DNA from: an uncultured Verrucomicrobiota bacterium
GTDB lineage: Bacteria; Verrucomicrobiota; Kiritimatiellia; CAIVKH01
Assembly (NCBI GenBank): GCA_964388845.1
Contig: CAYMCD010000004.1
Coordinates: 452-64,451, forward strand
Direction: 5' to 3'
DNA: 64,000 nucleotides
Below are positions 1 through 62,495 of the stretch, in pieces (position 1 is the stretch's first letter; the number at the start of each line of letters is the position of its first letter). The notes beneath the pieces were generated by a model, which was given only the letters and a program-made list of their open reading frames with translations, searched no databases and had not been told where the DNA came from. The position numbers and the translations under genes are program-made.

Positions 1-101
1 CCATTTTCTACAGTCGGGGTGAGTGGCAAGGTGCAATCGGTATCCGCGGGCGTGAGCTTGTCCGCGCGGAGGGGTGGGTGCGTCGTTGTGAGTGGGGGTT
101 T

Positions 102-150
102 TTACAGACGTTGGAACTCATGACGCGGTGTTATTACAGACGTTGGAAGT
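102..150 (+). repeat. Two direct copies of a conserved AT-rich ~20-bp element (core TTACAGACGTTGGAA at 102-116 and 135-149, 33-bp register) overlapping the 5' end of the giant gene
   Basis: Read directly: tttttACAGACGTTGGAAct (98-119) and atTACAGACGTTGGAAgttc (133-153). The same extended 18-20-mers recur three times at 24504-24566. The element is about 40% GC in a ~68% GC background. Copy 2 lies inside the predicted signal-peptide codons (YYRRWKF) if ATG-120 is the start. Confidence 0.75.
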
Positions 151-9100: not shown

Positions 9101-12100
9101 CTATTGCGCGACCGAGAATTCCACGACGGGCTCGGTCACGACTGTCGTTCTGGCCGCCTCGATTGATATCCTGGGCAACGGGGCGCTGATTGTGGATGGC
9201 GACGCGACGCCGTCGCCGACCGACCACACGGACTTCGGCGGGGTGGGGCTGGTGAATTCGAACCTTGTGCGGACCTTCACGATCACGAACGCCGGGCCGG
9301 GCGCGCTCTCCGTATACGGGGTCAGCACCAGTGGCGCGGCGGCAGCCGATTTCATCGTGATTGCGCCGCCCGGCACGCCGGTGAGCGCGGACGCGACCAC
9401 CACGTTCCAGGTCCGTTTCAACCCGACCGCGCTCGGCACGCGCACGGCGACGCTGGCCGTGTCGAACAATGTGACGGGCAAGACGCTGTATGACTTCGTG
9501 GTCCAGGGCACGGGCGTCGCGGCCTCGCTGGTCGTCGCCCCGTCCAGCCTCTCGGTGACCTCGGTGCTGGGCTCGGCGCCGGCCGGCCTCGGGTTCGGTG
9601 TGACGAACAGCGGGCGCGGGGACCTGGTGTACGGCGTGGCCACCAACGTCAACTGGCTCTCCGTCAGCCCGAATGCGGCGACCAACGCCGAGACGGAAGG
9701 GCGCCAGCACACGTTGACCTTCACCGCGCCCGGTTTGCACGCCGGGGTGTCGAATGCGACCATTACGGTCACCGACACGAACGCCGTGGGCAGCCCGCAG
9801 GTGGTGGCCGTTGAATGGACCCTGACGGCCATACCGCCCGTCCTGTCGGCCGGCGTGACGAACGACGGCAACGAACTGGTTCGGATCGGCTGGACGAAGG
9901 ACTCCGGCTACGACGTGATGATCGTGCACAATCGCACCAACCCGCCCTCCGCGCCGGCGAACGGCACGTCCTACAGCGTGGGCGGGGCCGTGGGTTCCGA
10001 CGGTTCGCGCGTGATTTACAGCGGCGGAGGCGCGGAGCTGCAGCACGTCGTGGCGCCCGGCAGCGACAACTACTACGCCTTCTATTCGGTGAACAACAAT
10101 CACTACTCGACGCCTTTGTCCACCAACACGACGACGGGCGCCTATGCCGCCGGCGAAATCGTCGAGCCGTTTGCCTACACCAGCGGCGTGACCATGATCT
10201 CGCGCCAGGGCGGAAACGGCTGGGGGGCCAACTTCTGGACCGGCGACACCAACGCCTTCTCCGTCAGCAATTTGAGCTTCGCCGCGCAGACGAACTATCC
10301 GACCCCGCGCGCGAACAAGCTCGCGGTCACGCCCCAGGATGGCGGCAGCAACACGATCCGTCGCCAGTTCACCAACACCTATGCGAGCGGGCGGCTTTAC
10401 GTCGGGTATATCGTCAACTTCCAGTACAGCGGCGCCGACAAGTACGCCGGACTGTCCCTGATGTCCAACACCACCGAGCGCCTGTTCGTGGGCGAGGTTT
10501 CCACCGCCGACCTGCGGCTCGGCCTCGACGGCAGCTCGTCGAATCGCGTCCTCAACAACGGGGCGGGCAACGATTACATCGTGGTGATGCGCTACGACTG
10601 GAGTTCCGGCCTCGCGGCGGCCAGCGCGTACAAGGTCGGCACGGATGCCGTGCCCGACAGCGAGCCGACCGCGTGGGACATGATGTTGAGCAAGGCGAGC
10701 AATGCCGTCGGGCGGATCAACGGGCTCCGGCTCGTGGCGGGCACGACGGGGTCCGGCACGCCGGGGACGACGTATTTCGACGAGATCCGCGTGGCGACCA
10801 ACTGGAGCGAGTTGATCCAGATGCTGCCCAGCCGGGTCATCTATGACGGCTTCGCATCCTCCAGCGGCGCGCTTTCCGGGGGCGGCGGCGGGACGGGCTG
10901 GTCCGACACGTGGGCGATCGGCGGCGATCCCTTTGCGGACTACACAGCCACCTCGTTCGGGATCGAGAAGTCCAGCTATTACCAGCCGACCGGGAACAAG
11001 ATCGTCCTGTATGGCGATGTGAACGGGCGCTGGATCACGGCCAGCCGGACCTTCCTGGAGCCGTTCACAAACGGCGCCGTCTATTTCTCCTGGATGATGA
11101 ACTACGAGTTCAACGGCACGGACAAATACGCGGGGCTCAAGCTGCTCGATGGCGGTTCCGAGAAGGCCTTCGTCGGCAAGGTGTCGGGCGCGGACAAGGC
11201 CCTCGGCATTGATTCCAGTTCGAGCAACCAGACCTCCACCAACGACATCGAAAACGCTTCGGGCAACGATTACGTCGTCGTCGCGAAATACGACTTCGCG
11301 ACCCGCGTGCTCAGCGCGACGACGTACCGCACGATAACCAACGCGGTCGCGGAGGAACCCAACGGCTACTGGCTGGTCACCACGACGCAGGGCGTCGGGC
11401 ACATCACCAGCTTGACGGGCGTCCGCCTCTCCATCGGCGCCGGCGCGAGCGTGCAGGTGGGCGATGTTTATTACGACGAAGTCCGCGTGGGCACCAACTG
11501 GTTCGAGGTCACCCGCAAGGACGGCGAGGCCCAGGCCCCGGCGATGGCGAACGGACCGACGCCGCGCCTGCTGTACGTCGGCACGAACTACAATCCGGCG
11601 CTCAACCCGCAGGGCATCCTGAACGACATCACCGTCACGGACGCGGACCTGATCAACACCGCCGATCCGCTGGATATCGCGATCCTGTGGAGCAACTCGT
11701 ACGGCGTGTTCATGACCAACGCGAGCCCGGCGATCAAGAACATCAGCTCCCGCCTGGGCCGCGTGACGCCGAACTACGATCCGGTCGTGCTGACCGGGAG
11801 TCAATTCCAGTCCACCGGCGCGGACGCCTCGTTCACCAATTTCGCGGGCAACAACGGCTCAACGGTGGTGACGACCTACCAGCACCGGGCGTTCAACATC
11901 ACCAACTCCACGTACGACGACGCGTACTACATCACCGTCAGCGCGGAGAACAACAACCTGGGCGGCGGGACGTTTGCCGCGCCGAACGCGGGCGACGCGA
12001 TCCCGTACTGGCGCGCGCTCACCGTGAACACCGCGCTGCAGTTCTACGTCCAGGACGACGACATCAGCTATCCGGAATTGCTCGAATTCACGATAGACGG

Positions 12101-15100
12101 GGTGGGCGGCTCGGGCGTCTCGAACCTGTCCGCCGGCGGGATCGCGGTCATCGGCGTGAACGGCACCGCGACGGGCGATCTGGAGCGGTTCTCCTTTGTC
12201 GTGCTGGCGCCGTTCCCCGCCGGCACCGTGATTGAGTTCACGGACTGCGGCTGGGATCCGACCGACCTGAGCGGCACGGGCGACTGGCACCGGGTCACGG
12301 AATTTCACACGAACAAATGGGTCGCCACCGGCAATATTGACGTCGGACGCGTGATCGAGCTGACCCTGAACGACATCAACAACGGCGGCGACCAGGTGAC
12401 GATTTTCCAATATTACGGGGCCACCACGGCGTCGAACGATTCCGAAAACGTGAATTTCGTCTACGCCGTGAACCTGGGTCCGCGCTGGTACGATCCGCCG
12501 GGCGATCCCATCCCCGACGACAACCAAAGCTCCGCCCTCTACCGCGGGTTGACCAACGGCACGACGGCCGTCAGCGTGCCGCTGGACTACGGCGTGGCCA
12601 ACGCCCGCTACATCGGCCCAATGACCGGCACCGCCTCCTACCTGCTGCTCCAGATCAGCGACTCGAACAACTGGGAATCGCTCGCGACCGGCTACCACGA
12701 CATCACGAATTACAGCTTCGAGGTGACCGGCGCGGGCGCCTTCGATTGGAACACGCCGGAGCTGTCCGACGCGCAGGTGCTGGCGGGCGGCTTCATGGTG
12801 ACCAACATCCTGCGCGACCTCGACAGCGGCGTGCTGGCCTCCAACACCTCGTTCGGGCACGCCCCGTATTTCATGCTGTTCAACACAAACGACCAGGTCG
12901 TGGTCTCGAACCTCTTCGTCGTGAGTTTCACGAACGGGACGAGGACGGTCATCACCAACGCGAACAACACCTTCTCCGGACAGTACGATCGCATCACGAT
13001 CGGGATGGGCGAGGCCCTGGTCGCCTGGTCCGACGCGGACGGCGATCGTTCCCTGGACACCTTGATGACAACGAGCCGCGTGCCCGTGCTCATCTTCGAC
13101 GACGACCCGGACGAACCCGTCGCCGGGGCCATGACCCTGTTGAACGGGTCGAACACCGTCACTGAGCAGGCGGGACCGGTCCAGCTGCTTGCGGCGTGGA
13201 ATTTCAACGCCAGCAACACCACGGCCACGTCCGGTTCCGGCACGTGGAGCGACAACCTGCTGACCGCGCCGACCTACGGAAATGCGGGAACCACCATCAA
13301 CGCCGTCTCCGGCGATACGGCGGGCGCCGACATCACGATCACCGCCGGAAGCGGACTGCAGAACAACGGCCGCTACATCCAGTTCCTGCTCAACATGTCC
13401 GGCAGCGAAGGCCTCGTGATGACGTACTCCGCGCGCCGGTCCGGGACCGGCTTCACCACCAACCTGGTCGCCTATTCGACCGACGGGGTGTCGTTCACGC
13501 CGTTCGCGACGAATACGCCGACCCAGGACAGCCACGCCCTGCGTTCCAACGACTTCGGCGCTGTGACCGCGCTGGACGACCAGGGCGCGGTATACATCCG
13601 CATCACGCTGGACGGCGCCACCGCCACCGCGGGCAACAACCGGTTCGACAATTTCCAGTTCAACGCGTTGCGACGGGTCTTCACCCTCACGGACGGCGCG
13701 CTCGCCCTCGTGGCCTCCACCAATCCGCTCTCGTTCAGCTTCAGCGTCTACGACGAGACCAGCGGCGTGGCGCGCGGAACGTCGTCCGACGGGACCAACA
13801 TGAATGTTTCAATTCCCGGCATGGCGACAAACAACACCACGAATTATGCCGCGTCCGCCAGCAGCGCCGGTACGCTCGCGCCCTCGTCCACCAGCCTGTG
13901 GCAGTTCACCTCCTTCACGTACGCGCAGATCGGCGATCTCTATGGAGGCGGGACGAACCTGATCCCCGTCACGGCGAATATCAGCGATCTCGACAACGAT
14001 CGCCTGGACGATCGCCTGCAGCTCACGAACCGTTCGTACGGCACCTTCTTTGTGACCGATGACGACACCAACACGCCGGTTGTCGCGAATGTAAACCTGT
14101 CCGGCGCGTCCGCCGCGCCGTTCGTGGTCGCCACGAACGGCGTCGCGCCGACGAATCTGATCCGCAATTTCATCGCGCGGCGGACCGGCTCGGGAACGGA
14201 CACCCTGACGACCGTCACGGACCAGGAGCTGGCCGATGCGACCAACATCCAGTTCCAGTTCGTCTTCGGCGTCCGCGACGCCCATTCCGGCGTTTCCCGC
14301 GGGGTCTCGGGGACGACCAACGAGGTGATGAGCTTCAGTCTGGGCACCAATATCACGGGCAATTTCACGGACTACAGCGCCGCGCTCTCCACGCCGCAGG
14401 CCACGACCAATCTCCTCCTCACGAACTACTGGACCTTCGGCAATTTCGACAGCGCCGCGATCAATGCCCTGATGGCCTCCACCGGAAATCCCGTACACAT
14501 CACCATGCCCGACCTCGACGACGACCGTCCGTCCGACCGGGCCACCGACTACAGCCGCCTGGTCGGCTACGTGCGCGTCGTGGACGACGACATCCGCGGG
14601 CCGATCATCAATTCGGCGGATATCGCGGGCGCCTACGGAACAAATGTGACGATGTATTCCAGTTTCGAGACCAACCAGAACTGGCCCGCGTCCTCGCTCG
14701 GCAGCGGGACGCCGTGGACCAACGATGCCACGACGGGCCGGTGGATCGCGGATGGGGCGACGTTTGGCGCGCTGGACCCCAAGATCTCCGGCACGCGTCG
14801 CATCGGCCTGCTCACCAATTCGCTCGCGGAGCCGCGTTGGATCCAGCTTCCGCCCATCGCCGATCCCGGCACGCTCGTGCTGTTCGCGGGCCGGTTCAGC
14901 GGAAACGATGTCACCCTGCGGGTCGAACGCGCGGACGGCGCCAGCTGGATCAGCGTCGGCAGCCGGGTCGTCACCAACCTGAATCCGGAATTCGAGCTGT
15001 TCTCCTGGGATATCAACGTCACCGGCGTGACGACGCTCCGCGTCGTGCACGCGGGGACCGGTCCGCAGGTCTACATGGACGATATCAGCGTCTACCCGCA

Positions 15101-16910
15101 GGCCATCTGGATCAGCACGAATTCGCTTACCATGAGCTGGGAGGAGGCGCTGGACGACTTCTCCACGGTCGCCGAATACCGGGTCGTGGCGCCGGCCCAG
15201 TCCGCGGCGCAGCCCGCGACGACCAACGACGGGACGGGGTTGTCCGCCTCGGTGCGGACGAACTCCTTCAATATCACGGGGCAGCAGGGCGTGTTGACGG
15301 GGTATCTCTTCGCCGTGGACAACGACGCGGACCGGGGCCACGACCAGGCCATCGGGAATTTGCAGAAACTCGTGGTCCGCGTGGACACCAATCCGCCGCC
15401 GGTTCCCACCGCGCTGCGCGCGACGGATGCCGCGGCCGGGTATCTCTTCGGCAGCATTGACGAATCGTCCGAGATCCTCGTCCAGTGGACTCCGCCGGGG
15501 ACGAACGCGTCGCAGTCGGCCGGGTGGCGGCAGTCGGACAGCGAGGCGCTGTCGCCGTGGGAGACCTACATCATCACGTATTATGAGGTGGTGGACACCA
15601 ACGGCACGCCGGCCGCGAACGCGGTCACGCAGGTCCTCACGCGGGCGACCGCAGGCTGGTCGAACGCATTGTCCAGCTACGCATTCACCAACCTGTTGCT
15701 CTCCAACCTGACGTTCGATTCCTACTACAAGATCACCGTCCAGGGCCGGGACGAGGCCGGGAATATCGGCCTGTCCACCAGTGTCGTGGGCAACACGGAT
15801 CGCTTTGTGGTCACACAGGGGCTCGCCCGGGCGAACATGGGCCTTTCCGTCCGGTGGACCGGCCCCACGAACGAGACGACCTATCGCGATTACGATGTCA
15901 TTTTCGTGGACAGTTCGGTCGGCTTCCACGCCTCGCTGACGAACAGCTGGGACTGGCTGACCTACACCAACCGGCCGCGGCTGGAGGACTACGGGGGAAC
16001 CAACCGCGTCGCGCCGGGTTGGCTGACGGGCACAACGTACCGGATGTACCGCGTGGCGCGGGAGGATCGCTGGCGGACCAACCAATCGCCGCGCCTGGCC
16101 AGCGTCGAAATCTACGCGGCCAAGGCCCTGCGCCTGCATCCGGGCGAGAACTGGTATTCACTGTTCTCCTGGCCCGACCCCGCGACGACCAATGAGCAGG
16201 AAAGCACCGTCGCCTACGTGTTCGGCACCAACACGCTGCACGCGAGCAACACCTATGCGCAGTCCACGCGCATTTCCTGGTTCGGCGCCACCACCGGCGC
16301 GACCAATATCGGGACGGTGGCCACCTCGATCGTCTGGCTGTCTTCGTCGGCGGGCTGGCAATACGCGCTCGGGGGATCCGGCGCGGCGAATGAGAAGCGC
16401 GTGCCGCTGGGGCAGGGGTTCATGATCGAGGTGCCGACCAATGCCGCGGCGACCAACCTGGTGCTGATCGGGCGGCTGCCGACGCAGTCGCTGTCGCGCG
16501 TGATCTCAGCGCCGGTTTCCACCAACATCCCGGAGTTCCATGTGCTGAGCCACCAGATGCCGGAACGCATCACGGTGTCGAACTTCGTCAGCCAGTTCAG
16601 CGGCTTCGGCGCCGGGCCGTTCGCGAACTACGCGGACGAGATTCGCATACTCGACAACAGCCAGACCAATGGCGTAGCGATGGGTTCGCTGCGCTCGCCG
16701 CGGATGCGCATCTGGTACAGTTCGATCGCCGCGCATTCGAACGCCCCGTGGCGGCGCGCGACAACAGGATCGCCGGCAAATAATCCGTCGGCGATGGGCG
16801 AGATTATCGAGCCGGACGACGCCATCATCATCGTCCGCCGCAAGTCGGGAACCGTGACGTTCGTCAACACGCCCACGTATCCGCCGCCGACCCGGAACAT
16901 CACGCCATGA
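120..16910 (+). CDS. Giant secreted multidomain protein (about 5600 aa): PATR repeats, MAM-like modules, Calx-beta, EEP domain, LTD, FN3/Ig-like modules
   Basis: ORF 78-16910 is uninterrupted. ATG-120 gives a textbook signal peptide (MTRCYYRRWKF-CAAAAALWSYLWV-TDGRA); GTG-189 is an alternative start. Domains recognised by eye: FN3-like (~700-1020); PATR repeats GTGTLALTG/GTLxAxxxFT (~1750-2800); MAM-like modules (FEG..W..SYDGGTTW..FFVDDIELS; ~3300-3820 and ~8520-8990); Calx-beta-like ending ATVVIQDDDAITI (~3840-4150); EEP domain (~4150-4935; VVAIQEW, SRWPI, HVVSTHF, VVAGDLN, YDFVLPN); LTD (~5388-5690; LFFSEYVEGSSNNKFLEIYNGTG...DDAIAL); and three ~225-aa tandem modules ending YFDEIRVAT(S/N)W. 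No PEP-CTERM, LPXTG or TM anchor at the C-terminus. Confidence 0.9.
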   Translation: MTRCYYRRWKFCAAAAALWSYLWVTDGRADVYLGKDGGLEGIATVDDSTTFSTGQSNKWTKDNATITISQETVNIRSGANALRVLNASTTGRRIRSPFNSFGSKTTGITIQYYRMITNVSNSASNQEGVVRSSTESLQGTYDRPASANSWDKQTYSPASATFTSIVGVILSRGPTASGGNIYIDDMCIYDGSVDTTAPNAPGSVVVENATTTSLDIRWGAASGGVDSGGYLVVRYTASPAASDDPNANGIYASNNTFTVTLTGTVRYQGTGTNFTDTGLASSQAYYYKVYTYDKAYNYSSESSGNGTTLSSCTPVGAVTFVQQTNYYTKYSSGGDIFNVDAARMGMWANSGSEQAVAWRAFRTDGSGGGELRELQPGDRFRVTINGPNPSGLVGVSINDGAATGSWDNRTNNTRGFIQVQGGGANDYFVTHGGGTPAWSGVRPNSTDQTLVFDILSSAEFTANIEGQTAKYDLSMLNGPGDGDRVDGFSLFLNNDAGDIHWKQTTMVTNLGYVELGADNGTRSIAGKITDSTDPACTNTAAPNLLRKTGTGTVTLQNTANTYTMGTRVEAGTLAVFNDGSLGAAPGGAVATNLNIWSSGTLRATNSFTISANRGIALGDVSGPGIEVDSGKTLTYAGALGGNAEWNKKGTGTLALTGTSSTNNGKVVIQGGTLQLAGDGSLGAVPGAASEKINIWSTGTLEANATFTLNANRRIELGAVAGPKISVAGGYTLTYGGQISGSANWSKESAGTLALTGAVGSASGTLVLNAGTVAFDGTNTSQAVGVTASGFLYGNGSIGALTITGQVSAGGASNTVGNLRTTSLNLQDNGRLQVNFSAMTGTAGTDWDVITVGGGSGTYTVNAADGSDFVLALKGNPTFNNALGYTNIIADAGTASGFVSNKFTVSTDEFTPGLGGGAFVVDAAGGDLRLIFIPSVVAEPDMGVLGTNGAAISNGDVAPSAADGTDFGQVYVLGARAVTNVFAITNAGTANLTLSSVSTSSAMGAAADFAVLSWPSTISPGAKSNLVIAFDPSDVGVRTALVSIANNDTNNNPYTFVLAGEGTGAYSAITLQGFEGSAADTWTYTRAAGAGDIYVDGDTNAGGAYALTFRGSASSNSDPYLEFDTIDLSGYGSVTLRVAFAVAGADNGDDLELDLSYDGGTTWNGPGSTTLVYGASNTNLGFTGTGASTVPANPWTVALPSTAQQVRVRIRFDESANDNTFDRFFVDDIELSGMGAAPTVALGDVLYSTSETDATVTVPVSISASFSATVQVALAGTATGGGTDYSANTTNVIFSAGGATTSNLVFTLNNDGAAEGPEEIGVTLVAARGARVGGPAAATVVIQDDDAITIMSANLTSGTNLVDGTYWYTETSQRIFKRLRPDVVAIQEWKFTNAGARAFVDAVFGTNYYYYIEPESDPNPIPNGVISRWPITASNEWTDTYVGARDHAQVTIDIPGNRDLHVVSTHFKAGPGDAATRESQARELTNYIAGAAFPTNDYVVVAGDLNLTNRTETTFVVVTSVVTDAHQPADRDGDLNTNLGRSAPYDFVLPNHVLDADHLAVAVAGVSFANGVVFDSRQYKDHLTPILVEDSYEANRTHMAVVKVFTISTSAAPPTVTTTIASATNQTTATAGGNVTDDGGASVTNRGVVWALDPATPTVPGAQTTNGTGTGSYSSTLTNLTPGATYNYRAFAQNSAGTGYGATNSLTTPCFSGIVTGLVASATNETDFTAAWSNFAGATGYSLDVSTNATFGGAGSPDLFFSEYVEGSSNNKFLEIYNGTGASVDLSNYKVLHFNNGASTPTYSLTLSGTLSAGAVYVIENSSESLGVTADLSTSSSVMNFNGDDAIALTNTLAGGYADVIGQIGTDPGTEWGTGSASTADNTIRRMSSVTGGDTNGANSFDPATEWDGYATDTVSGLGSHTGGASPSYVPGYSNRTVSVSGASVTGLTGGATYYFRVRATNDYCATDNSATQSVTTISYVPDVAALGTNLAAIVISNTAPAIANGTDFGSIGVNLSNRMHTFTITNSGTAALGVGTVTTTGTHAADFIVVSQPAASIAAGGSSTFQVQFDPGAAGQRDATLTFTNTVSGKTPYPFAARGTGVLAGIGYGPAATSVTVMVGTTPSAAAFGVTNVGRGRLDYATSTNAAWLSVSPVSANLNEGGAQAHTISFNVTGLSAGTSNATVTITDAGASNSPQTVAVTLILTNIPNPTAVSAWAHGRELIRLGWTRPTGLDVMIVYRETNAPSVPAQGQGYSIGDTYGGDGSRVIYKGSAAQLEHVVLPGRTNHYALHAINNDHYSPGVATNIATTAYPASEIVEPFAYTNTGTLATGGHGGGGNGWTNSWQYDTGNFNISSGNFANISVYPTNAANRVRINSADIDGTSKAARRHFAAYTTGKVYAAYMLNYAYNGANKFAGLSFMDGTNEMMYYGEDYNSDQKLAVGSSSTATNIYAGVGNDYLIVGLYDFTADTGYGLVYKIGTDSVPASEPSVWHGSHSNNAIARIDGIRIAAGAGGGSGTPGDTYFDEIRVATSWELLLANYAQPEIAALGTNLAVLTTANTPDYANGSDFGATAVTGGQVDRTLFITNSDAGALNVSGLSTSGAQAADFIVVSWPAKVSPGAVSNLVLRFDPFASGVRTGAITIASDDADEGSYVFHVRGTGQVPPTVATTIASATNQTSATAGGNVTDDGYAPVTNRGVVWSASAGPTVPGAQTTNGTGTGSYSSTLTNLTPGAPYYYRAFAQNSAGTGYGTEYTLTTLCFSGLVTGHYVSATNDVNFTVVWSNFADASGYALDVSSNAGFAVNSGGSVYTNTWEGASKGAYASGTVVIAGITWWMDDALIGTSASDRKNGSNAARVQNSGVIGMQTSTNMGLSSITLLHGVYGSDGNSDGRVEYSTDGWATWSTAGTFTATSTSLTAFEATNLNVSGSVAVRIVKTSGGGDRYNLDDILLHPYSQAPSFVPGYSNRAVSGTSASVTGLVSGATYYYRIRATNAYCATENSTTGSVTTVVLAASIDILGNGALIVDGDATPSPTDHTDFGGVGLVNSNLVRTFTITNAGPGALSVYGVSTSGAAAADFIVIAPPGTPVSADATTTFQVRFNPTALGTRTATLAVSNNVTGKTLYDFVVQGTGVAASLVVAPSSLSVTSVLGSAPAGLGFGVTNSGRGDLVYGVATNVNWLSVSPNAATNAETEGRQHTLTFTAPGLHAGVSNATITVTDTNAVGSPQVVAVEWTLTAIPPVLSAGVTNDGNELVRIGWTKDSGYDVMIVHNRTNPPSAPANGTSYSVGGAVGSDGSRVIYSGGGAELQHVVAPGSDNYYAFYSVNNNHYSTPLSTNTTTGAYAAGEIVEPFAYTSGVTMISRQGGNGWGANFWTGDTNAFSVSNLSFAAQTNYPTPRANKLAVTPQDGGSNTIRRQFTNTYASGRLYVGYIVNFQYSGADKYAGLSLMSNTTERLFVGEVSTADLRLGLDGSSSNRVLNNGAGNDYIVVMRYDWSSGLAAASAYKVGTDAVPDSEPTAWDMMLSKASNAVGRINGLRLVAGTTGSGTPGTTYFDEIRVATNWSELIQMLPSRVIYDGFASSSGALSGGGGGTGWSDTWAIGGDPFADYTATSFGIEKSSYYQPTGNKIVLYGDVNGRWITASRTFLEPFTNGAVYFSWMMNYEFNGTDKYAGLKLLDGGSEKAFVGKVSGADKALGIDSSSSNQTSTNDIENASGNDYVVVAKYDFATRVLSATTYRTITNAVAEEPNGYWLVTTTQGVGHITSLTGVRLSIGAGASVQVGDVYYDEVRVGTNWFEVTRKDGEAQAPAMANGPTPRLLYVGTNYNPALNPQGILNDITVTDADLINTADPLDIAILWSNSYGVFMTNASPAIKNISSRLGRVTPNYDPVVLTGSQFQSTGADASFTNFAGNNGSTVVTTYQHRAFNITNSTYDDAYYITVSAENNNLGGGTFAAPNAGDAIPYWRALTVNTALQFYVQDDDISYPELLEFTIDGVGGSGVSNLSAGGIAVIGVNGTATGDLERFSFVVLAPFPAGTVIEFTDCGWDPTDLSGTGDWHRVTEFHTNKWVATGNIDVGRVIELTLNDINNGGDQVTIFQYYGATTASNDSENVNFVYAVNLGPRWYDPPGDPIPDDNQSSALYRGLTNGTTAVSVPLDYGVANARYIGPMTGTASYLLLQISDSNNWESLATGYHDITNYSFEVTGAGAFDWNTPELSDAQVLAGGFMVTNILRDLDSGVLASNTSFGHAPYFMLFNTNDQVVVSNLFVVSFTNGTRTVITNANNTFSGQYDRITIGMGEALVAWSDADGDRSLDTLMTTSRVPVLIFDDDPDEPVAGAMTLLNGSNTVTEQAGPVQLLAAWNFNASNTTATSGSGTWSDNLLTAPTYGNAGTTINAVSGDTAGADITITAGSGLQNNGRYIQFLLNMSGSEGLVMTYSARRSGTGFTTNLVAYSTDGVSFTPFATNTPTQDSHALRSNDFGAVTALDDQGAVYIRITLDGATATAGNNRFDNFQFNALRRVFTLTDGALALVASTNPLSFSFSVYDETSGVARGTSSDGTNMNVSIPGMATNNTTNYAASASSAGTLAPSSTSLWQFTSFTYAQIGDLYGGGTNLIPVTANISDLDNDRLDDRLQLTNRSYGTFFVTDDDTNTPVVANVNLSGASAAPFVVATNGVAPTNLIRNFIARRTGSGTDTLTTVTDQELADATNIQFQFVFGVRDAHSGVSRGVSGTTNEVMSFSLGTNITGNFTDYSAALSTPQATTNLLLTNYWTFGNFDSAAINALMASTGNPVHITMPDLDDDRPSDRATDYSRLVGYVRVVDDDIRGPIINSADIAGAYGTNVTMYSSFETNQNWPASSLGSGTPWTNDATTGRWIADGATFGALDPKISGTRRIGLLTNSLAEPRWIQLPPIADPGTLVLFAGRFSGNDVTLRVERADGASWISVGSRVVTNLNPEFELFSWDINVTGVTTLRVVHAGTGPQVYMDDISVYPQAIWISTNSLTMSWEEALDDFSTVAEYRVVAPAQSAAQPATTNDGTGLSASVRTNSFNITGQQGVLTGYLFAVDNDADRGHDQAIGNLQKLVVRVDTNPPPVPTALRATDAAAGYLFGSIDESSEILVQWTPPGTNASQSAGWRQSDSEALSPWETYIITYYEVVDTNGTPAANAVTQVLTRATAGWSNALSSYAFTNLLLSNLTFDSYYKITVQGRDEAGNIGLSTSVVGNTDRFVVTQGLARANMGLSVRWTGPTNETTYRDYDVIFVDSSVGFHASLTNSWDWLTYTNRPRLEDYGGTNRVAPGWLTGTTYRMYRVAREDRWRTNQSPRLASVEIYAAKALRLHPGENWYSLFSWPDPATTNEQESTVAYVFGTNTLHASNTYAQSTRISWFGATTGATNIGTVATSIVWLSSSAGWQYALGGSGAANEKRVPLGQGFMIEVPTNAAATNLVLIGRLPTQSLSRVISAPVSTNIPEFHVLSHQMPERITVSNFVSQFSGFGAGPFANYADEIRILDNSQTNGVAMGSLRSPRMRIWYSSIAAHSNAPWRRATTGSPANNPSAMGEIIEPDDAIIIVRRKSGTVTFVNTPTYPPPTRNITP
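4930..10815 (+). repeat. Intragenic segmental duplication: unit A ~4930-7740 is repeated as unit B ~8100-10815, offset ~3.1-3.2 kb
   Basis: Protein level: PPTVTTTIASATNQTTATAGGNVTDDG...AFAQNSAGTGYG (4930-5350) versus PPTVATTIASATNQTSATAGGNVTDDG...AFAQNSAGTGYG (8100-8520); PSYVPGYSNRTVSVSGASVTGL... (5880-) versus PSFVPGYSNRAVSGTSASVTGL... (8995-); EIVEPFAYTNTG... (7060-7735) versus EIVEPFAYTSGV... (10156-10820). A stretch of more than 60 nt is identical at 5102-5170 and 8258-8326 (cgcagacgacgaacgggacgggcacgggcagctactcctcgacgctgacgaacctgacgcccggcgcg). Unit A carries the LTD (5388-5690); unit B has a MAM-like insert at that position (8520-8990). Confidence 0.85.
10156..11510 (+). repeat. Tandem pair of ~675-nt modules (10156-10820 and 10836-11510), homologous to 7060-7735; each encodes a ~225-aa domain starting NGW and ending YFDE(I/V)RV(A/G)T(N/S)W
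   Basis: Three aligned protein segments read from the ORF: GGHGGGGNGWTNSWQYDTGNFNISSGNF...; QGGNGWGANFWTGDTNAFSVSNLSF...; GGGGTGWSDTWAIGGDPFADYTATSFGI.... All share the internal motif NG(A/T)(N/D)K(F/Y)AGL(S/K)(F/L)(M/L)D. Confidence 0.8.
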
Positions 16911-17776
16911 AAACGATCCGACAGCACACCCCCGGGATGCGGATGGCCGCCATCGCCGCGCTGGCGGCGGGCGCGTGGGCCCTGTCGGCGCGCGCCCAGC
17001 ACGCCCCGCTCGCCTACGAAAACAGCGCGCCGGTCGTCAATGAATTCGGCCAGCCCCTGTCCGGGACGGCCGCCGGCGGCGCGCGGGTCGAAATACTTTC
17101 GGCCCCGATCGGCGTGTACGCCCCGGCGATGGACGGCCAGCCGCACCCGAGCAATACGGTGCTCGCGGTTGCGCACATCGGCGCGGGGGCGGACCCCGGC
17201 CCGGGGGCATCAGGCCTCGTCTCCGGCGCCATCCTGCTGGACCGCACAAAGGCCACGAAGCTGTTCGCGCGCGTCTTTAATCGCGAGACGCGGGAGCTCT
17301 CGTCGTTCTACGGCGATAGCGCGGTCTACACCAATCCGACCGCGGTGTACGGCGTGTTCTCCTTCGAGGTCTCGGCCGCCCAGCAGCCGCTCGATCCGGG
17401 CGATGGCGACGCGGACGGGTTGAATAATTCGTGGGAAAAGAGCCTCGGTTCCAATCCGAACCTCGACGATACGGATGAGGACGGTGTATCCGACGGACAC
17501 GAGTTTCGCGCGGGCACGGAACTCCTGGACGACCAGTCCTTCCTCGCCATGATCCGCGTGCTCCCCTCCGCGGGGGGACACCTCCGCGTCGAGTGGGACA
17601 GCGTGGCCGGCAAGTCCTACCAGTTGCAGTACGCGCCCTCTGAAATGCTGGACGACAGCCTGGTCTTCAGCAACGTGAACGCCGCCGTCACGGCCGCGGA
17701 TGCCTCCGCGCATACGATCGTCACCAACGGCGCAAGCCTGCCGGCGGGCGTGTTTCGGGTACACCTGGTCGAATAA
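16907..17776 (+). CDS. Secreted protein (289 aa) with acidic thrombospondin-type-3-like Ca-binding repeats and a conserved C-terminal beta module
   Basis: ATGA start/stop overlap with the giant gene (16907-16910). Signal peptide MKTIRQHTPGMRMAAIAALAAGAWALSARAQ. Repeats DPGDGDADGLNNSWE...NPNLDDTDEDGVSDGHEF. The C-terminal ~80 aa (..GGHLRVEWDSVAGKSYQLQYAPS...GVFRVHLVE) align with the C-terminus of the second giant protein (62160-62495). Confidence 0.75.
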   Translation: MKTIRQHTPGMRMAAIAALAAGAWALSARAQHAPLAYENSAPVVNEFGQPLSGTAAGGARVEILSAPIGVYAPAMDGQPHPSNTVLAVAHIGAGADPGPGASGLVSGAILLDRTKATKLFARVFNRETRELSSFYGDSAVYTNPTAVYGVFSFEVSAAQQPLDPGDGDADGLNNSWEKSLGSNPNLDDTDEDGVSDGHEFRAGTELLDDQSFLAMIRVLPSAGGHLRVEWDSVAGKSYQLQYAPSEMLDDSLVFSNVNAAVTAADASAHTIVTNGASLPAGVFRVHLVE

Positions 17777-31157: not shown

Positions 31158-31213
31158 GGGGATTCCTTGTTCAACGGCGGCATTAAACGCCGGGGCGGAC
31201 GAGCGAGGCAACG

Positions 31214-48145: not shown

Positions 48146-48180
48146 CCCCCACCGGCGCCGGTGTATTATATCCGCTGGAC

Positions 48181-56939: not shown

Positions 56940-59900
56940 GTGCCTGACTATGGGGAATTCAATCCATGTGGAGTTGTGAGCGTTAGGCGGCAGTTCCGCG
57001 TCCTGGGACGCGCCCTGCTGATAGCTGTTGCCGCGACGACGCTCGCCCGGGCGCAGGCCCTGAACCAGGATTTTTCCGCCACGAATTTCCCCCCCGCGGG
57101 TTGGACGGTGTCCGGTTCCGCGCCCGACCTGTGGCGGCGAAACGCGGCCTCCGGTTTCGGAATCGGGTCCGGCTCGGCCCAGGCCTATTTCTGGGGTATC
57201 AGCTCGGGAACGGGATTATTGGCGTCGCCCGTGTTCGATGCGACCACGCCGGGCGATGCGCTGTTGTTCGACTACGCCTACGCCGCGTACTACGACGTCG
57301 TGGACCGGTTGGAAATCCTGTACTCCACCAATGCGGGCGCTTCGTATGCGACGCTCCTGGTCATGCCGGGCGGTCCGACGGGGAGTCTCACCACGGTCGA
57401 ATCGCGCACCAGCGCATTCGTGCCGACGGCCGAGGAGTGGAACAGCATCGCCGTACCGCTTCCCGAGGGCGCAAACCGCGTGCAATTCGCCGCCGTCACG
57501 GCCTACGGAAACAACCTGTATGTGGACAACCTCCGCGTGCTGGATTATTCCGGGGCCGCCGATCTCGCGGTGTCGCTGTCCGATGCGCCGGATCCCGTGG
57601 CGGTGGGCAGCAACCTGACGTATTCCCTGACGGTTTCCAACGCGGGCCCGGCGGCGGCCGATGCGGTGGTGCTGACGAATCAATGGTCCGCCCCGGCCGC
57701 GCTGATTTCCGCGACGACCAGCCGCGGCGCGTGGTCCACCAACGCCAACGCCGTGATCGTTGACGTGGGCTCGCTCGCCTCCGGCGAATCCGCCGCAATC
57801 TCCATCGTGATCCAGCCGCAAACCACCGGCCTGTTGACGAATGTGGCCGAAGCGGCCACGACCACCCTCGAACTCGTCCCCGGAAACAACCGGCGAACGG
57901 TCAGCACTCGGGTGGATACCCACGGCGGCGATTTGTTTTTCAGCCCCGCATCGTATGCCGTGGATGAAGGCCGTGGATTCGTTGTCCTCACCGTCCGGCG
58001 GACGAACGGGAGCGCCGGCGCGGTCTCCTTTGATTGCGCGTTCGCCGACGGTTCGGCCCTGACGGGGAGCGACTACAGCGCACCGGGTGGAACGATGACC
58101 CTTGCCAACGGGCAGACTTCCGTCAGTTGGGCCGTGACCATTTTGAATGATGCGCTCCTGGAGGACATCGAGTCTTTTTCTGTCCGTTTGAGCAACCCGG
58201 CGGGCGGCGCGCGCCTGGTCGCGCCCAGCAACGCAACGGTGACGATCCGCGACGACGACGGCGTCGCGGCGATGCCCCTCGCGGACGATTTCGAATCCGG
58301 CGTATTCTCGAATTACTGGTCCACCTATTCGACGGCATCGCTCGGGCCGCTGATTACGGTCTCCGACGGACCGTACAGCGGGTCCCGGCATGTCAACCTG
58401 AACGGCGATTTCCTGGTCTCTTCCCTCAACGAGTTGATCTTGACCGCAAACCTGGCCGGGCAGGAGGGTGTGCGCCTGCGCTTCTGGCACAAGCGCTTCC
58501 GCTATGAGACCGACAACACCATGAGCGACTCGTTCGTCGGCCATGCCTACGCGGATGGCGTGGCAATCAGCGTGGATGGGACCACCTGGCACAAGGTCCA
58601 CGGCCTTACGGCGGCCGAAACAGGAACCAACGAATACCGCCAGTTCGACGTGGCTCTCGATCCCATCCTGGCCGCGCGTGGGCTGGCCTTCACCGACCGC
58701 GTTCGCATCAAGTTCCAGATGTATGGCTACTATTATCCGCCCTCTTACGGTCGGTTTATTGACGACATCGCCCTCTATACGCAGAGCGGCGACCTGCGTT
58801 TCCCCGGGCCGTCCATGGAGGTCGTGGAGGGGGCGGGCGCCCTCACGGTCACCGTCGAACGCGTGCAGGGCGATTCGGGCGAGGTGAGCGTGGCGTTCGC
58901 AACGAGCAACGAGACGGCGCTGGCGGAGAGCGATTATACATCCGCAACCGGCGTGCTGGTGTTCAGCAATGGGCAGCGCCGCGCGGACCTTGTTGTGCCG
59001 ATTCTTCAGGACAGCGCGGACGAGACGTCCGAAATCTTCAGCATCAACCTGTTCAATCCGCAGGGCGGGGCGGGTCTCGCGTCACCGTCCCGCATGGAGG
59101 TGACGATTGCCGACGACGACGGGCCGGGCGAGCTCGTTTTCAGCGCGGCAAATTATGTGCAGTTGGAGTCCGGTGGTCTGGCGAGCATCACCGTGATCCG
59201 GCGCTTCGGGACCAACGGCGCGGTGACCGTCAACTATCGGACCGCCGCAGGCACGGCGGCCAGCGGGGTTGATTACGAGGAAACCGCCGGCACGCTCGTA
59301 TTCCCGGATGGCGTCGCGCAGCGGATTATTGAAATCCCGTTGCTCGACGACAACCTCGTCGAGGGCGCGGAAACCGTTCTGCTGTTCCTCGAACAGCCGG
59401 CCGGCGGCGCGACCCTCGGGCCGCAAACCAACGCCACGCTGACGCTGCTCGACGACGAGGCGCCCCGCGCGCCGTTTCCATTTTATGAAGGGTTCGAAAG
59501 CGGGATCTTGTCCAACTACTGGTCCGTTCGCTCCACCGGCGCGGGCCGGGGCCAGATCGCCGGATCCAACGCCTACGAAGCCGCGCGGTGCCTTGCCCTG
59601 GATTCGACCTCCGGCTTCGCCCTCAACGAGGCCGTGCTCACGGTGGACCTCGCCGGCCAGACCAGCGTGATCCTGCGCTGCTGGGCGCGCGATTTTGGCG
59701 ACACGCCGGATCCCCTGCCGGACACGTTCCCCGGCTCGACCAATGCCGACGGCATCGCCGTGAGCGCCGACGGCCTGACCTGGCATCGCCTCCTCGACTG
59801 GGGCGGGACCGGTGCTGCGGCGTCCTATACGGGCCGGGTCGTAGATCTGGCCGGCGAGGCGGCCGCCCGGGGGATCCCGTTGACTCCGACCTTCCAGATC

Positions 59901-62495
59901 AAATTCCAGCACTATGGTGATGCCGCGCTGACATCGGGCGGCAGGGCGTTCGATCACATCAGTCTTACCCCTGCGCCGCCCGCCACTTCCACGGTCATCC
60001 GCTTCCAGGGGTTCGAGGGGCATCCCGACGATACGTGGGATTATAGCATCGTGCCGAAATCCGGCGCACTGGCGCTCGCGACGGCCCGACGAAACAGCGG
60101 TACACGTTCCGCGCGACTGACCGGCTCATTCCAGTTGAACGCGGATCCGTATCTGGAATTCAACAACGTGTCCATCGGCGCTTACAACAATGTACAGCTT
60201 TCCGTCGCGTTCAGCGCGTCCGGGCCGGATACGGACGACGACCTGTACCTCGATATTTCCTACGACAACGGCGCCACGTGGAACGGCGCCGGGTCGGCCA
60301 AGCTGGTGGACGGCTACAGCAATGCCGAGGTGCCCTTTGGAGGCACGAATCCGGCCAATCCCGCCACGGTGACGAACAATCCCTGGCTCGTGAACATTCC
60401 CGCGGGCCGCTCGCAGGTCAAGGCACGGCTGCGTTTTGACGAGCGCTCCGGGAGCTACAACAATTCGATAGACCACTACTTCGTGGACGACATCCGGTTG
60501 AGCTACCAGCCGTTCGGCCAGCCGCCCCGCCTTGTTCCGATCGGCGACCGGACAGCGCTGGTGAGCAACACGCTGGAGTTCATCGTCTCCGCCGACGATA
60601 TTGACCATGAGGTCATCACCCTCGCCGCCGACGACCTGCCGCCCGGCGCGGTATTTGAACCGCTGGCCGGCGCAGGTCCCGTGAGCAATGTCTTCCGATT
60701 CACGCCGGACGAGAGCCAGGCCGATGCCGTCTATCCGGTTGTTTTCCACGCCACGGATGGCGACGGCCGCCATTCGGAAACGGTGGCAATCCGTGTGCTC
60801 GACAAGGTCGTCACATTTTCCACAAACCATATGTTCATCGAAGAGGCATCCGGTGGCGTTGTTGTCGGGATCCGCCTGTCGCGCTCCGCCGATGTCACCG
60901 TGCCGCTTGCAATCACCGGCCTGGCGACGCTCGGCGCCGACTATGCCCTGTCGGCCACCGCGTTGACCTTCACGGTGGACGGACCCAATGAGCAGAACAT
61001 CATGCTGACACCCGTGGACGACGGTTTGCCTGAAGGCCCTGAAAACCTGCGGATGGCCGTGGCCGAAACCCCCGATGCGCGGGCCGGTGACGACGGCTGC
61101 GAGGTGATTCTCCGCGACGACGACAGCGTCACGATTGCCGACGCGAACCTGACGAGCGGCGGCGGGGGCTACTATCGGGGCCCCGGCGAACGCATCCTGC
61201 AAGCCCTGCGGGCGGACATCGTGGCCATCCAGGAGTTCCGGGTCACCAACGCCGCCGGCCCCCGCGCGTTCGTGGATCAGCATTTCGGCACGAATTTCCA
61301 TTACTATGTCGAACCCGCCACGCTGCCGAACGGGGTCATCAGCCGCTGGCCGATCCTGGCCGCCGGCCAGTGGGACGACCCGCTGCTCTCCGACCGCGAA
61401 TTCGTCTGGGCCACCATAGATGTGCCCGGCGGCCGCCCGCTCCACGTCGTCAGTGTGCACTTCTACTATTCCGGCGGCGCCTCCGCGCGCGAGTCCGAGG
61501 CGCGCTTGCTGACCAACTACCTCGCGAACGCGGGCTTCCACCCCTCGGACCTCGTGGTCGTCTGCGGCGACTTGAACACCCAGCATCGGGAAGAGGCTGC
61601 GTTGAACGTGTTGACGGGCGTCCTGCGGGACGACCGGCGGCCCGCCGATCTGTTCGGCGATACCGATACCAACCAGAACCGCGACAAGCCGTATGACTTC
61701 GTGCTGCCGTTGCCCTATTTGAATGCGCGCCACCAGCCCGTGCATCTCGGCGGCCTGGTGTTTCCGGAGGGGCTGGTGTTCGACACCCGGCATTGGAACC
61801 CGCCGCCCGCGCCCGCCCTTTGGAATGACTCCGGCGAACAGATGATGCAACACATGGCGGTGATGAAACGCTTCGAATTGGACCGGTTTGTGACGCTCCT
61901 GGCGCGGACCAATGGCCCCGGGACCATAGCCCCGGCCCACGCCGAGGTCGGCCTCGGTTCCAACCAGGCCTTCACGCTGACCGCCGCGCCGTATCACCAC
62001 ATCCGCCGCATCCGCGCGAATGAGGAAAGTTGGGAGCCGCCCGGGACGGCTTCTGAAATCGTGTGGGTCTGGACCAACACACAAGCCAACGGTTGGCTTG
62101 AGGTGACGTTCGACGAGACGCTCGCCACCAATCGCGTGCCGCATTTCTGGCTGGCCGCTTACGGATTAACCAACGAGACCTGGGACGCCGAGGCCCTGAA
62201 GGACGCCGACGAAGACGGCATGGCGGCGTGGGAGGAATATCTGGCCGATACCAATCCGACCAATTCCCAGTCGGTCTTTGAGGTGCTGGCCCTCCAGGGC
62301 GGTGCGGGCCGCGCCATCACCTTTTTCTCCTCCACCGCGCGCGTCTACACCGTGGACTTCACGACGAACGCACAACCCGGCGGCGCGTGGCAGCCGCTCG
62401 CCGCCGAGCAACCCGGCGGGTATGGGCAGACGACGCTCGTCGATACGAACCCCGCGCCGATCCGCATCTACCGGGTCCGGGTGCGTGCCCCGTAG
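56940..62495 (+). CDS. Giant secreted multidomain protein 2 (about 1840-1850 aa): MAM-like, DUF11/CARDB-like and Calx-beta modules plus an EEP domain, paralogous to parts of giant protein 1
   Basis: ORF opens with GTG 56940. A more likely start is GTG 56976 (RBS GGAG 56969-72), giving a signal peptide VSVRRQFRVLGRALLIAVAATTLARAQA. Domains by eye: CARDB/DUF11-like (..AADLAVSLSDAPDPVAVGSNLTYSLTVSNAGPAAADAVVLTNQW..); MAM-like modules (FESGVFSNYWS...W...FIDDIALY; FQGFEGHPDDTWDY...YFVDDIRLSY); Calx-beta-like ends (..ATVTIRDDDG, ..MEVTIADDDG, ..ATLTLLDDE, ..CEVILRDDDSVTI); EEP domain (~61128-61875; DIVAIQEF, SRWPI, HVVSVHF, VVCGDLN, YDFVLPL). C-terminal ~80 aa are homologous to the C-terminus of the 16907-17776 protein. 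Confidence 0.9.
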   Translation: MPDYGEFNPCGVVSVRRQFRVLGRALLIAVAATTLARAQALNQDFSATNFPPAGWTVSGSAPDLWRRNAASGFGIGSGSAQAYFWGISSGTGLLASPVFDATTPGDALLFDYAYAAYYDVVDRLEILYSTNAGASYATLLVMPGGPTGSLTTVESRTSAFVPTAEEWNSIAVPLPEGANRVQFAAVTAYGNNLYVDNLRVLDYSGAADLAVSLSDAPDPVAVGSNLTYSLTVSNAGPAAADAVVLTNQWSAPAALISATTSRGAWSTNANAVIVDVGSLASGESAAISIVIQPQTTGLLTNVAEAATTTLELVPGNNRRTVSTRVDTHGGDLFFSPASYAVDEGRGFVVLTVRRTNGSAGAVSFDCAFADGSALTGSDYSAPGGTMTLANGQTSVSWAVTILNDALLEDIESFSVRLSNPAGGARLVAPSNATVTIRDDDGVAAMPLADDFESGVFSNYWSTYSTASLGPLITVSDGPYSGSRHVNLNGDFLVSSLNELILTANLAGQEGVRLRFWHKRFRYETDNTMSDSFVGHAYADGVAISVDGTTWHKVHGLTAAETGTNEYRQFDVALDPILAARGLAFTDRVRIKFQMYGYYYPPSYGRFIDDIALYTQSGDLRFPGPSMEVVEGAGALTVTVERVQGDSGEVSVAFATSNETALAESDYTSATGVLVFSNGQRRADLVVPILQDSADETSEIFSINLFNPQGGAGLASPSRMEVTIADDDGPGELVFSAANYVQLESGGLASITVIRRFGTNGAVTVNYRTAAGTAASGVDYEETAGTLVFPDGVAQRIIEIPLLDDNLVEGAETVLLFLEQPAGGATLGPQTNATLTLLDDEAPRAPFPFYEGFESGILSNYWSVRSTGAGRGQIAGSNAYEAARCLALDSTSGFALNEAVLTVDLAGQTSVILRCWARDFGDTPDPLPDTFPGSTNADGIAVSADGLTWHRLLDWGGTGAAASYTGRVVDLAGEAAARGIPLTPTFQIKFQHYGDAALTSGGRAFDHISLTPAPPATSTVIRFQGFEGHPDDTWDYSIVPKSGALALATARRNSGTRSARLTGSFQLNADPYLEFNNVSIGAYNNVQLSVAFSASGPDTDDDLYLDISYDNGATWNGAGSAKLVDGYSNAEVPFGGTNPANPATVTNNPWLVNIPAGRSQVKARLRFDERSGSYNNSIDHYFVDDIRLSYQPFGQPPRLVPIGDRTALVSNTLEFIVSADDIDHEVITLAADDLPPGAVFEPLAGAGPVSNVFRFTPDESQADAVYPVVFHATDGDGRHSETVAIRVLDKVVTFSTNHMFIEEASGGVVVGIRLSRSADVTVPLAITGLATLGADYALSATALTFTVDGPNEQNIMLTPVDDGLPEGPENLRMAVAETPDARAGDDGCEVILRDDDSVTIADANLTSGGGGYYRGPGERILQALRADIVAIQEFRVTNAAGPRAFVDQHFGTNFHYYVEPATLPNGVISRWPILAAGQWDDPLLSDREFVWATIDVPGGRPLHVVSVHFYYSGGASARESEARLLTNYLANAGFHPSDLVVVCGDLNTQHREEAALNVLTGVLRDDRRPADLFGDTDTNQNRDKPYDFVLPLPYLNARHQPVHLGGLVFPEGLVFDTRHWNPPPAPALWNDSGEQMMQHMAVMKRFELDRFVTLLARTNGPGTIAPAHAEVGLGSNQAFTLTAAPYHHIRRIRANEESWEPPGTASEIVWVWTNTQANGWLEVTFDETLATNRVPHFWLAAYGLTNETWDAEALKDADEDGMAAWEEYLADTNPTNSQSVFEVLALQGGAGRAITFFSSTARVYTVDFTTNAQPGGAWQPLAAEQPGGYGQTTLVDTNPAPIRIYRVRVRAP

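Follow-up and report, generated by a model that had tools for sequence, protein, structure and literature searches.

This study compared two giant genes in a 64,000-nucleotide stretch of DNA from an uncultured Verrucomicrobiota bacterium (Kiritimatiellia, CAIVKH01; contig CAYMCD010000004.1 of assembly GCA_964388845.1, positions 452 to 64,451), hereafter called the window, which has a G+C content of ~66%. Both genes encode a cassette of a jelly-roll module, a Calx-beta domain and an EEP phosphoesterase domain. The cassette has been conserved and shuffled as a module, and its EEP domain belongs to an uncharacterised subfamily of a known kind of enzyme. Giant 1 (78..16910, plus strand; 5610 aa from GTG 78) and giant 2 (56940..62495, plus strand; 1851 aa from GTG 56940) were delimited from a list of open reading frames (ORFs), their translations and their orthologues, which for giant 2 include the full-length orthologue P0235. 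We consider it probable that each giant is a surface multidomain protein bearing one copy of this cassette, with a catalytically competent, metal-dependent EEP phosphoesterase.

Pairwise BLASTP comparison gave two strong, colinear matches. The Calx-beta and EEP block of giant 2 (aa 1301–1647) aligned with that of giant 1 (aa 1263–1620) over 359 aa with 45% identity (E=2e-77), and the jelly-roll block of giant 2 (aa 1018–1203) with that of giant 1 (aa 1080–1257) over 186 aa with 43% identity (E=9e-36). As both matches lie far beyond chance, chance similarity is excluded, and the claim of a first-pass annotation that the Calx-beta and EEP domains are common to both giants is borne out. The peptide strings quoted there are all present in the translations of the two giants and at the coordinates given, where 61128–61875 corresponds to aa 1397–1645 and 59990–60500 to aa 1017–1187 of giant 2, and 4150–4935 to aa 1358–1619 and 3300–3820 to aa 1075–1247 of giant 1. 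The direct fusion of Calx-beta to EEP was also recovered, since there is no linker and the C-terminal DDD of the Calx-beta domain enters the first EEP strand (RDDDSVTIADANL, QDDDAITIMSANL). The domain order had to be corrected: along the protein, it is jelly roll, Calx-beta and EEP, and in giant 2 it is jelly roll, Ig, Calx-beta and EEP.

All cassette domains are encoded on the plus strand. In giant 1, the jelly-roll module (aa 1077–1252; 3306..3833) is followed by the Calx-beta domain (aa 1252–1361; 3831..4160; PF03160, 42.2 bits, E=9.5e-11) and the EEP domain (aa 1358–1622; 4149..4943; PF03372, 35.0 bits; 352 bits with a hidden Markov model (HMM) of the subfamily). In giant 2, the jelly-roll module (aa 1015–1195; 59982..60524) is separated by an Ig-like spacer (aa 1196–1300; 60525..60839), which fills the gap between the BLAST blocks and weakly matches He_PIG (PF05345, E=0.056), from the Calx-beta domain (aa 1286–1397; 60795..61130; PF03160, 33.0 bits, E=6.9e-8) and the EEP domain (aa 1397–1650; 61128..61889; PF03372, 42.4 bits). 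For Calx-beta, the domain preceding the EEP was scanned alone against a cut-off of 27 bits, and both EEP domains score above the Pfam gathering cut-off of 24.5 bits. A six-frame HMM scan of the window found a single EEP of the subfamily per giant and no other copy.

Concerning the jelly-roll module, the description "MAM-like" in the first-pass annotation stands as far as the repetition in both giants and the fold are concerned, and it fails for the family profile and the MAM cysteines. MAM domains carry four conserved cysteines. The modules of giants 1 and 2 contain none, and the Pfam MAM profile (PF00629) did not match them even at E≤1; membership in the MAM family was rejected on these two grounds. 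The sole Pfam match was to Reelin_subrepeat-B at 15.5–17.9 bits, below the cut-off of 27. The fold resembles that of solved MAM domains, and the matches also include a run of carbohydrate-binding modules (CBMs; 12.4–11). The module is a jelly roll of the MAM/reelin/CBM class without the MAM cysteines. A word-index homologue search with the module alone gave no matches, and an exhaustive profile search placed it in 423 representative clusters, 91 of them at E≤1e-30, mostly in proteins of 800–7000 aa. Proteins of ~1900–2000 aa from related metagenome-assembled genomes (MAGs; loci L048, L051 and L061; proteins P0231 and P0232) carry three or four tandem jelly-roll modules and no EEP. These tandem copies in proteins without EEP show that the binding module is also used by itself.

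The EEP domain retrieved 472 protein clusters at E≤0.001, and its best matches were secreted stand-alone proteins of ~280 aa from Verrucomicrobiota, Lentisphaerota and Myxococcota (50–54% identity). Members of the subfamily occur alone (~280 aa), together with lamin-tail, Ig I-set, PPC or Calx-beta domains, or as part of the whole cassette in proteins of 740–6500 aa; this variety of architectures supports the earlier suggestion of a family of surface EEP enzymes on different scaffolds. In an alignment of 122 sequences, N11, E40, D152, N154, D194, D238 and H246 are strictly or almost strictly conserved, and H115 is present in at least 90%. The same residues in giant 2 are N1403, E1432, H1507, D1544, N1546, D1586, D1630 and H1638. 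Giant 1 has the same catalytic set, except that the residue preceding its catalytic His is T, not Q (..NRTHMAV.., with RTH at 4893–4901). At this position, most of the subfamily has Q, the proteins of giant 1 type (g1-type) have T and those of giant 2 type (g2-type) have Q, S or A.

The catalytic residues, whose conservation the first-pass annotation had proposed to check, are thus kept as a set but for one canonical residue: where the SDH motif normally has its Asp, the subfamily has Q, T, S or A (Q1637 in giant 2). Because the position varies in this way across the subfamily, the canonical Asp appears to be dispensable in it. Mutation of the equivalent Asp lowers AP-endonuclease activity without abolishing it. 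Eight residues before the catalytic H1638 comes the invariant D1630 (61827–61853), which may make up for the absent Asp. The replaced Asp, together with the adhesin-like beta domains that make up the rest of the giants, could also mean that the EEP is catalytically dead and serves an adhesin only as a binding or structural part, like Crc or the Cimex nitrophorin within the EEP fold. This reading is very unlikely, as the catalytic His and the N, E, H, D, N and D residues reach full invariance or at least 90% conservation across the 122 members, single-domain secreted proteins of ~280 aa included, which argues for selection for catalysis even in relatives that consist of the EEP alone.

Searching with giant 2 aa 1018–1650 recovered the cassette block at 100% coverage in P0121 (60% identity), P0123 (856 aa, 52%) and P0124 (872 aa, 46%), and at 83% coverage in P0122. 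P0123 and P0124 consist of little beyond the cassette and a C-terminal tail like that of giant 2. Among the top 150 jelly-roll representatives, 20 contain an EEP, which lies downstream of the jelly roll in 19 of the 20. The spacing between the two domains is either ~75–100 aa (type A, as in giant 1) or ~170–190 aa (type B, as in giant 2), and the Ig-like spacer of ~100 aa is retained in the g2-type relatives P0121, P0123, P0124 and P0235 and missing from giant 1. As an evolutionary unit, the cassette also forms the core of stand-alone proteins of ~860 aa and has been inserted into different scaffolds.

Giant 1 itself preserves a trace of this. Its cassette splits the first copy of a scaffold repeat exactly at an Ig/fn3 junction, with a choice-of-anchor-D Ig domain on the left (aa 951–1079; 2928..3314) and an fn3-like pair on the right (aa 1617–1780; 4926..5417). 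The second copy of the repeat (aa 2555–2815; 7740..8522, plus strand like the first) has no cassette between its Ig domain and fn3-like pair. After removal of aa 1080–1616, the flanks (951–1079 and 1617–1780) align colinearly with aa 2555–2815 at 59% identity over 277 aa. Since the flanks align continuously with the cassette-less copy, the cassette was gained or lost as a block, and the re-joining of the flanks is direct evidence for this event.

The paralogy of the giants, also proposed in the first-pass annotation, was supported by an EEP phylogeny, with the addition that the duplication is ancient. The two EEP domains share 50% identity with each other, while the domain of giant 2 reaches 70% with P0122 and 66.5% with P0121, and that of giant 1 reaches 53.5% with its best match, P0134. 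Giant 2 has a full-length orthologue (P0235, 1876 aa) with 66% identity across aa 19–1851, and giant 1 has several, namely P0243 (5781 aa, 49% over 5066 aa), P0241 (6545 aa), P0233 and P0253. Relatives are at most 66% identical, and the closest all come from MAGs labelled Verrucomicrobiota or Kiritimatiellia, in a scan of one genome per GTDB species. In public MAGs, annotations of the orthologues go no further than "DUF11 domain-containing" or "EEP family". A neighbour-joining tree of 92 EEP domains with 200 bootstraps separated a g1-type clade (193/200) from a g2-type clade (149–169/200). Related MAGs served as a proxy for the number of paralogues: CALMNW and CALKWZ each hold a g2-type locus (L011 and L012) and a g1-type giant (L056 and L046), and CALKWZ additionally has a third type of ~711 aa (L036). 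The g1-type lineage carries jelly roll, Calx-beta and EEP within fibres of ~5000–6500 aa, the g2-type lineage carries jelly roll, Ig, Calx-beta and EEP in proteins of ~1700–2000 aa, and the two are found together in related Verrucomicrobiota genomes.

A recent intragenomic duplication or gene conversion could likewise have produced a shared cassette, and the two copies do lie on the same strand, 57 kb apart, with the same domain order. Such an origin is extremely improbable, and was rejected, because the copies are merely 45–50% identical and fall, together with copies from the same MAGs, into separate bootstrapped clades. The closer relatives and full-length orthologues of each giant elsewhere and the extra Ig domain inside the giant 2 cassette also speak against it. 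Because each giant is nearer to its orthologues elsewhere, because the clades are separate and because MAGs are represented in both, the giants are ancient paralogues whose duplication is older than the divergence of these organisms. In a metagenome contig from ENA, the giant 2 orthologue has a frameshift in the jelly-roll module that divides it into ORFs of 1105 aa and 743 aa (L001, 6700–12232; L002, 1000–6532). As the split is the same in two assemblies, it is either a real pseudogene, a programmed shift or a shared assembly error.

The predicted N-termini of both giants are signal-peptide-like. For giant 1, whose reading frame is open leftward to window position 3, the start is probably ATG 120, giving the N-terminus MTRCYYRRWKFCAAAAALW; for giant 2, GTG 56976 is the likelier start, yielding MSVRRQFRVLGRALLIAVAATTLARAQA. 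The reading of both giants as Sec-exported multidomain proteins at the cell surface or outside the cell is, as a whole, the probable best explanation. Their C-terminal ends are ..PPPTRNITP in giant 1 and ..IYRVRVRAP in giant 2, and an NCBIfam scan found no PEP-CTERM sorting signal (TIGR02595) on either; PEP-CTERM sorting by the neighbouring exosortases was rejected for this reason.

Giant 2 ends in a tail (aa 1651–1851; 61890..62492, plus strand) with a beta domain, a TSP3-like DxDxDG repeat and a beta-sandwich of ~80 aa ending in IYRVRVRAP. This tail is retained in P0121, P0122, P0235, P0123 and P0124, as well as in further proteins with an EEP or a jelly roll. The DxDxDG repeat followed by a beta-sandwich of ~80 aa ending in (F/Y)RV recurs within the window, at 62190–62492 in giant 2 (aa ~1750–1851) and at 17400–17776, and the same tail was observed in an EEP paralogue type of ~700 aa (P0139–P0147) and in stand-alone EEPs of ~370 aa. 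It has a weak NCBIfam match to the Amuc_1099 pilus-like family. The tail may serve surface retention or secretion across the Planctomycetota–Verrucomicrobiota–Chlamydiota (PVC) superphylum.

The homology, domain identities, fold, conserved catalytic residues, ancient paralogy and cassette boundaries are directly supported by the comparisons, and from them we infer localisation, activity and substrate as follows. The scaffold, together with the C-terminal TSP3/beta-sandwich tail, would retain the enzyme on the cell surface or close to it. The EEP would be placed on a polymeric substrate by the jelly roll and the linker-less, Ca2+-binding Calx-beta domain, and there it would cut a phosphodiester bond by a Mg2+/Ca2+-dependent mechanism with His as the general base. 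The likeliest substrate would be extracellular nucleic acid, with a possible role in phosphorus or nucleotide scavenging or in matrix remodelling.

By analogy, we tentatively propose that the giants may be extracellular nucleases or phosphodiesterases acting on nucleic acid. A lamin-tail domain (LTD) is fused to an EEP of the subfamily in at least 34 of the 120 relatives listed, and giant 1 has a lamin-tail region (aa 1757–1960; 5346..5957, plus strand; PF00932, 55.9 bits) whose LTD sits 140 aa past the EEP and resembles the N-terminus of ExeM. ExeM of Shewanella oneidensis (PMC6085458) and Xds of Vibrio cholerae (PMC6746945) are experimentally characterised extracellular nucleases with LTD and EEP. 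The fusions in the relatives, the LTD of giant 1 and the architecture of these two enzymes are the reasons for leaning towards a nuclease.

Several observations weigh against this proposal or against the wider reading of the giants as active surface phosphoesterases, besides the loss of the SDH Asp. An OB-fold nucleic-acid-binding domain is needed for the activity of ExeM and Xds (PMC6085458, PMC6746945), and Pfam and NCBIfam scans found no OB-fold family in either giant, although remote OB folds are possible. The EEP domains of the giants have no match to the EEP region of ExeM/NucH at E≤0.01, and the best profile matches in the PDB are bacterial sphingomyelinases rather than nucleases (E=1e-7), which align over the central region only. 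NCBIfam holds no model for the subfamily, and its matches among the 122 relatives were all sub-threshold (xth in 38, sphingomyelinase in 21 and ExeM/NucH in 1). No characterised member of the subfamily was found in the literature, the stand-alone homologues P0044 and P0077 have no conserved neighbour genes in common, and the localisation of the giants is predicted from features of their sequences alone.

The EEPs could instead be lipid phosphodiesterases, similar to sphingomyelinase C or phospholipase C, that target the membranes of other cells, and the giants would then be fibres for cytolysis or foraging on contact. In an HMM alignment, H1507 and the GD1544xN1546 motif fall on H151 and D195/N197 of the Bacillus cereus sphingomyelinase. 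A global hhalign comparison with an Escherichia coli ExoIII sequence, which is to be read as a lead only, brought all motifs into register, with Q1637-H1638 on D258-H259. The score for sphingomyelinase C (TIGR03395) was 19.8 bits against a cut-off of 248.2, the best of the 122 relatives reaching E=8e-7, and those for exodeoxyribonuclease III/AP endonuclease (TIGR00633, NF008733) were 15.8–20.5 bits against a cut-off of 280. Membership in the sphingomyelinase or ExoIII families was rejected, as these scores are far under the equivalog cut-offs, and the lipid reading seems to us unlikely. A phmmer search of PDB sequences with the EEP domain and the jelly roll gave no meaningful match. The EEP domain has the four-layer alpha/beta-sandwich EEP fold, and its fold relatives include the function-unknown 3l1w, 3mpr, 3g6s and 4ruw, nSMase2, nocturnin, TDP2, CNOT6L and PDE12, and sphingomyelinase C and ExoIII, with no functional class predominating.

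The genes around the giants bear on a third possibility, that the cassette acts on phosphodiester-linked glycans (exopolysaccharide, a teichoic-acid-like polymer or phosphoglycan), that the jelly roll binds sugar and that the giants may be tied to the exosortase/exopolysaccharide locus. Between the giants lie genes for a TSP3-repeat protein and a TPR protein, sucC, sucD, an aldehyde dehydrogenase gene, the exopolysaccharide locus, an FHA protein gene, gyrA and gyrB, and efp comes after giant 2. The exopolysaccharide locus encodes a sugar transferase, two exosortase and EpsI pairs, epimerases, many glycosyltransferases, an FkbM methyltransferase and a DUF362 protein. The first-pass annotation had noted that the paralogues bracket a glycan locus. 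This is literally true, but a functional link to that locus is unsupported, since housekeeping genes stand in between and the neighbourhoods of the giant 2 orthologues are unrelated. The orthologue in L007 adjoins thyX and an aconitase gene, and that in L001 adjoins, as an anecdotal case, other EEP genes lying outside the subfamily, a PLD-like gene and a TfoX_N gene; tblastn found none of the window neighbour genes in g2-type loci.

Because the neighbours of giant 2 orthologues are unrelated and the giants lack a PEP-CTERM signal, the bracketing is best read as a coincidence. The action on glycans is improbable: the adjacency to exopolysaccharide genes is not kept (g2-type loci have no gyrB, efp or exopolysaccharide genes beside them), housekeeping genes separate the giants from the glycan genes, the sorting signal is absent and no sugar-binding residues were identified in the module. 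There is also a small chance that the cassette defines a class of cell-surface phosphodiesterases, mostly of the PVC superphylum, with an altered active site (SDH Asp lost, D1630 invariant) and, as substrate, a phosphodiester surface polymer other than nucleic acid, belonging to other cells or to the matrix; the unit would then be mobile between giant scaffolds, and the giants would be contact-dependent enzymatic fibres instead of passive adhesins.

Among the neighbouring genes, the one for a secreted TSP3-repeat protein of 289 aa (16907..17776, plus strand; PF18884, with a C-terminal beta-sandwich) overlaps the giant 1 stop codon. A TSP3 gene with 41% identity also directly follows the giant 1 orthologue P0243 in L009, and the gene is, as judged from this arrangement, a conserved partner of giant 1. 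In L009 (1–9448), the giant 1 orthologue is immediately preceded by another giant gene (7660 aa) and has a third one (>3000 aa) on its downstream side. Giant 1 may belong to a cluster of giant genes cut by the window edge. The two exosortase (EpsH) and EpsI/DUF3485 pairs were observed at 28386–30127 (minus strand) and 47974–49868 (plus strand), and no PEP-CTERM substrate was identified among the proteins scanned. In and beside the exopolysaccharide locus, there are long ORFs with a high G+C content at third codon positions and no Pfam match (24585–26960, 31214–32842 and 39784–41388, all on the minus strand). Gene calls there are uncertain, as some ORFs overlap others in other frames, for example 30147–31847 and 38855–41359.

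The N-terminal scaffold of giant 2 (57060..59981, plus strand, as are its parts) consists of a choice-of-anchor J domain (57060–57539, NCBIfam), a DUF11 domain (57561–57905), three Calx-beta domains (57900–58260, 58773–59120 and 59100–59470) and two divergent jelly rolls (58260–58772 and 59466–59981). Besides the cassette module, giant 2 has three divergent jelly rolls in all (16–23% identity), one of which is the choice-of-anchor J domain.

These results provide clean boundaries and a map of conserved residues for an abundant, unnamed EEP subfamily, and indicate that giant Verrucomicrobiota surface proteins bear a real enzyme module that is shuffled as a unit. If extracellular DNA is the substrate, the giants would be candidates for surface-tethered scavenging of extracellular DNA and phosphorus in wastewater, soil and marine Verrucomicrobiota; if the substrate is something else, the subfamily would represent a new activity to discover. 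Genome annotations should describe both giants as surface proteins that contain an EEP domain and have conserved orthologue groups, and should not treat them as an oddity of this one locus.

Compared with known systems, the jelly-roll module differs from eukaryotic MAM domains (RPTP-mu, PTPRK, neuropilin), reelin subrepeat B and CBM jelly rolls, being 7–14% identical to them, with no Pfam MAM match or MAM cysteines. The structural-genomics EEPs (3l1w, 3mpr, 3g6s, 4ruw) are 15–20% identical to the EEP domain and give no functional transfer. Sphingomyelinase C and beta-hemolysin (2ddr, 1zwx, 3i5v) are secreted and of similar size, and they give the best profile matches, with the motif III His and GDxN aligned; unlike sphingomyelinase C, the giants lack the SDH Asp, show no sign of the membrane-binding hairpin, fall far below the TIGR03395 cut-off and align in the central third alone.

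There is a parallel in architecture with ExeM, Xds and NucH, although membership in this family was rejected, as the match is confined to the LTD of giant 1 and none exists for giant 2. The full-length models NF033680/NF033681 gave 101.8 bits for giant 1, on the LTD only, against a cut-off of 1300, nothing for giant 2 and one sub-threshold NF033681 match among the 122 relatives. No OB-fold or GlyGly-CTERM was found in the giants, and here the EEP precedes the LTD. ExeM also differs in having D822-H823 (PMC6085458) instead of the Q-H or T-H of the giants, and an EEP of ~370 aa instead of ~260 aa. In common with ExeM, Xds and NucH, the giants are predicted to be secreted, surface-associated multidomain proteins in which an EEP is combined with a lamin-tail domain, as seen in giant 1. 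The LTD of giant 1 matches positions 11–200 of NF033680 (E=2.7e-29), far below the family cut-off. With Xds, the model templates overlap, directly for 4ruw and 4zkf and through CNOT6L, which is represented by 3ngo for Xds (PMC6746945) and by 3ngn here.

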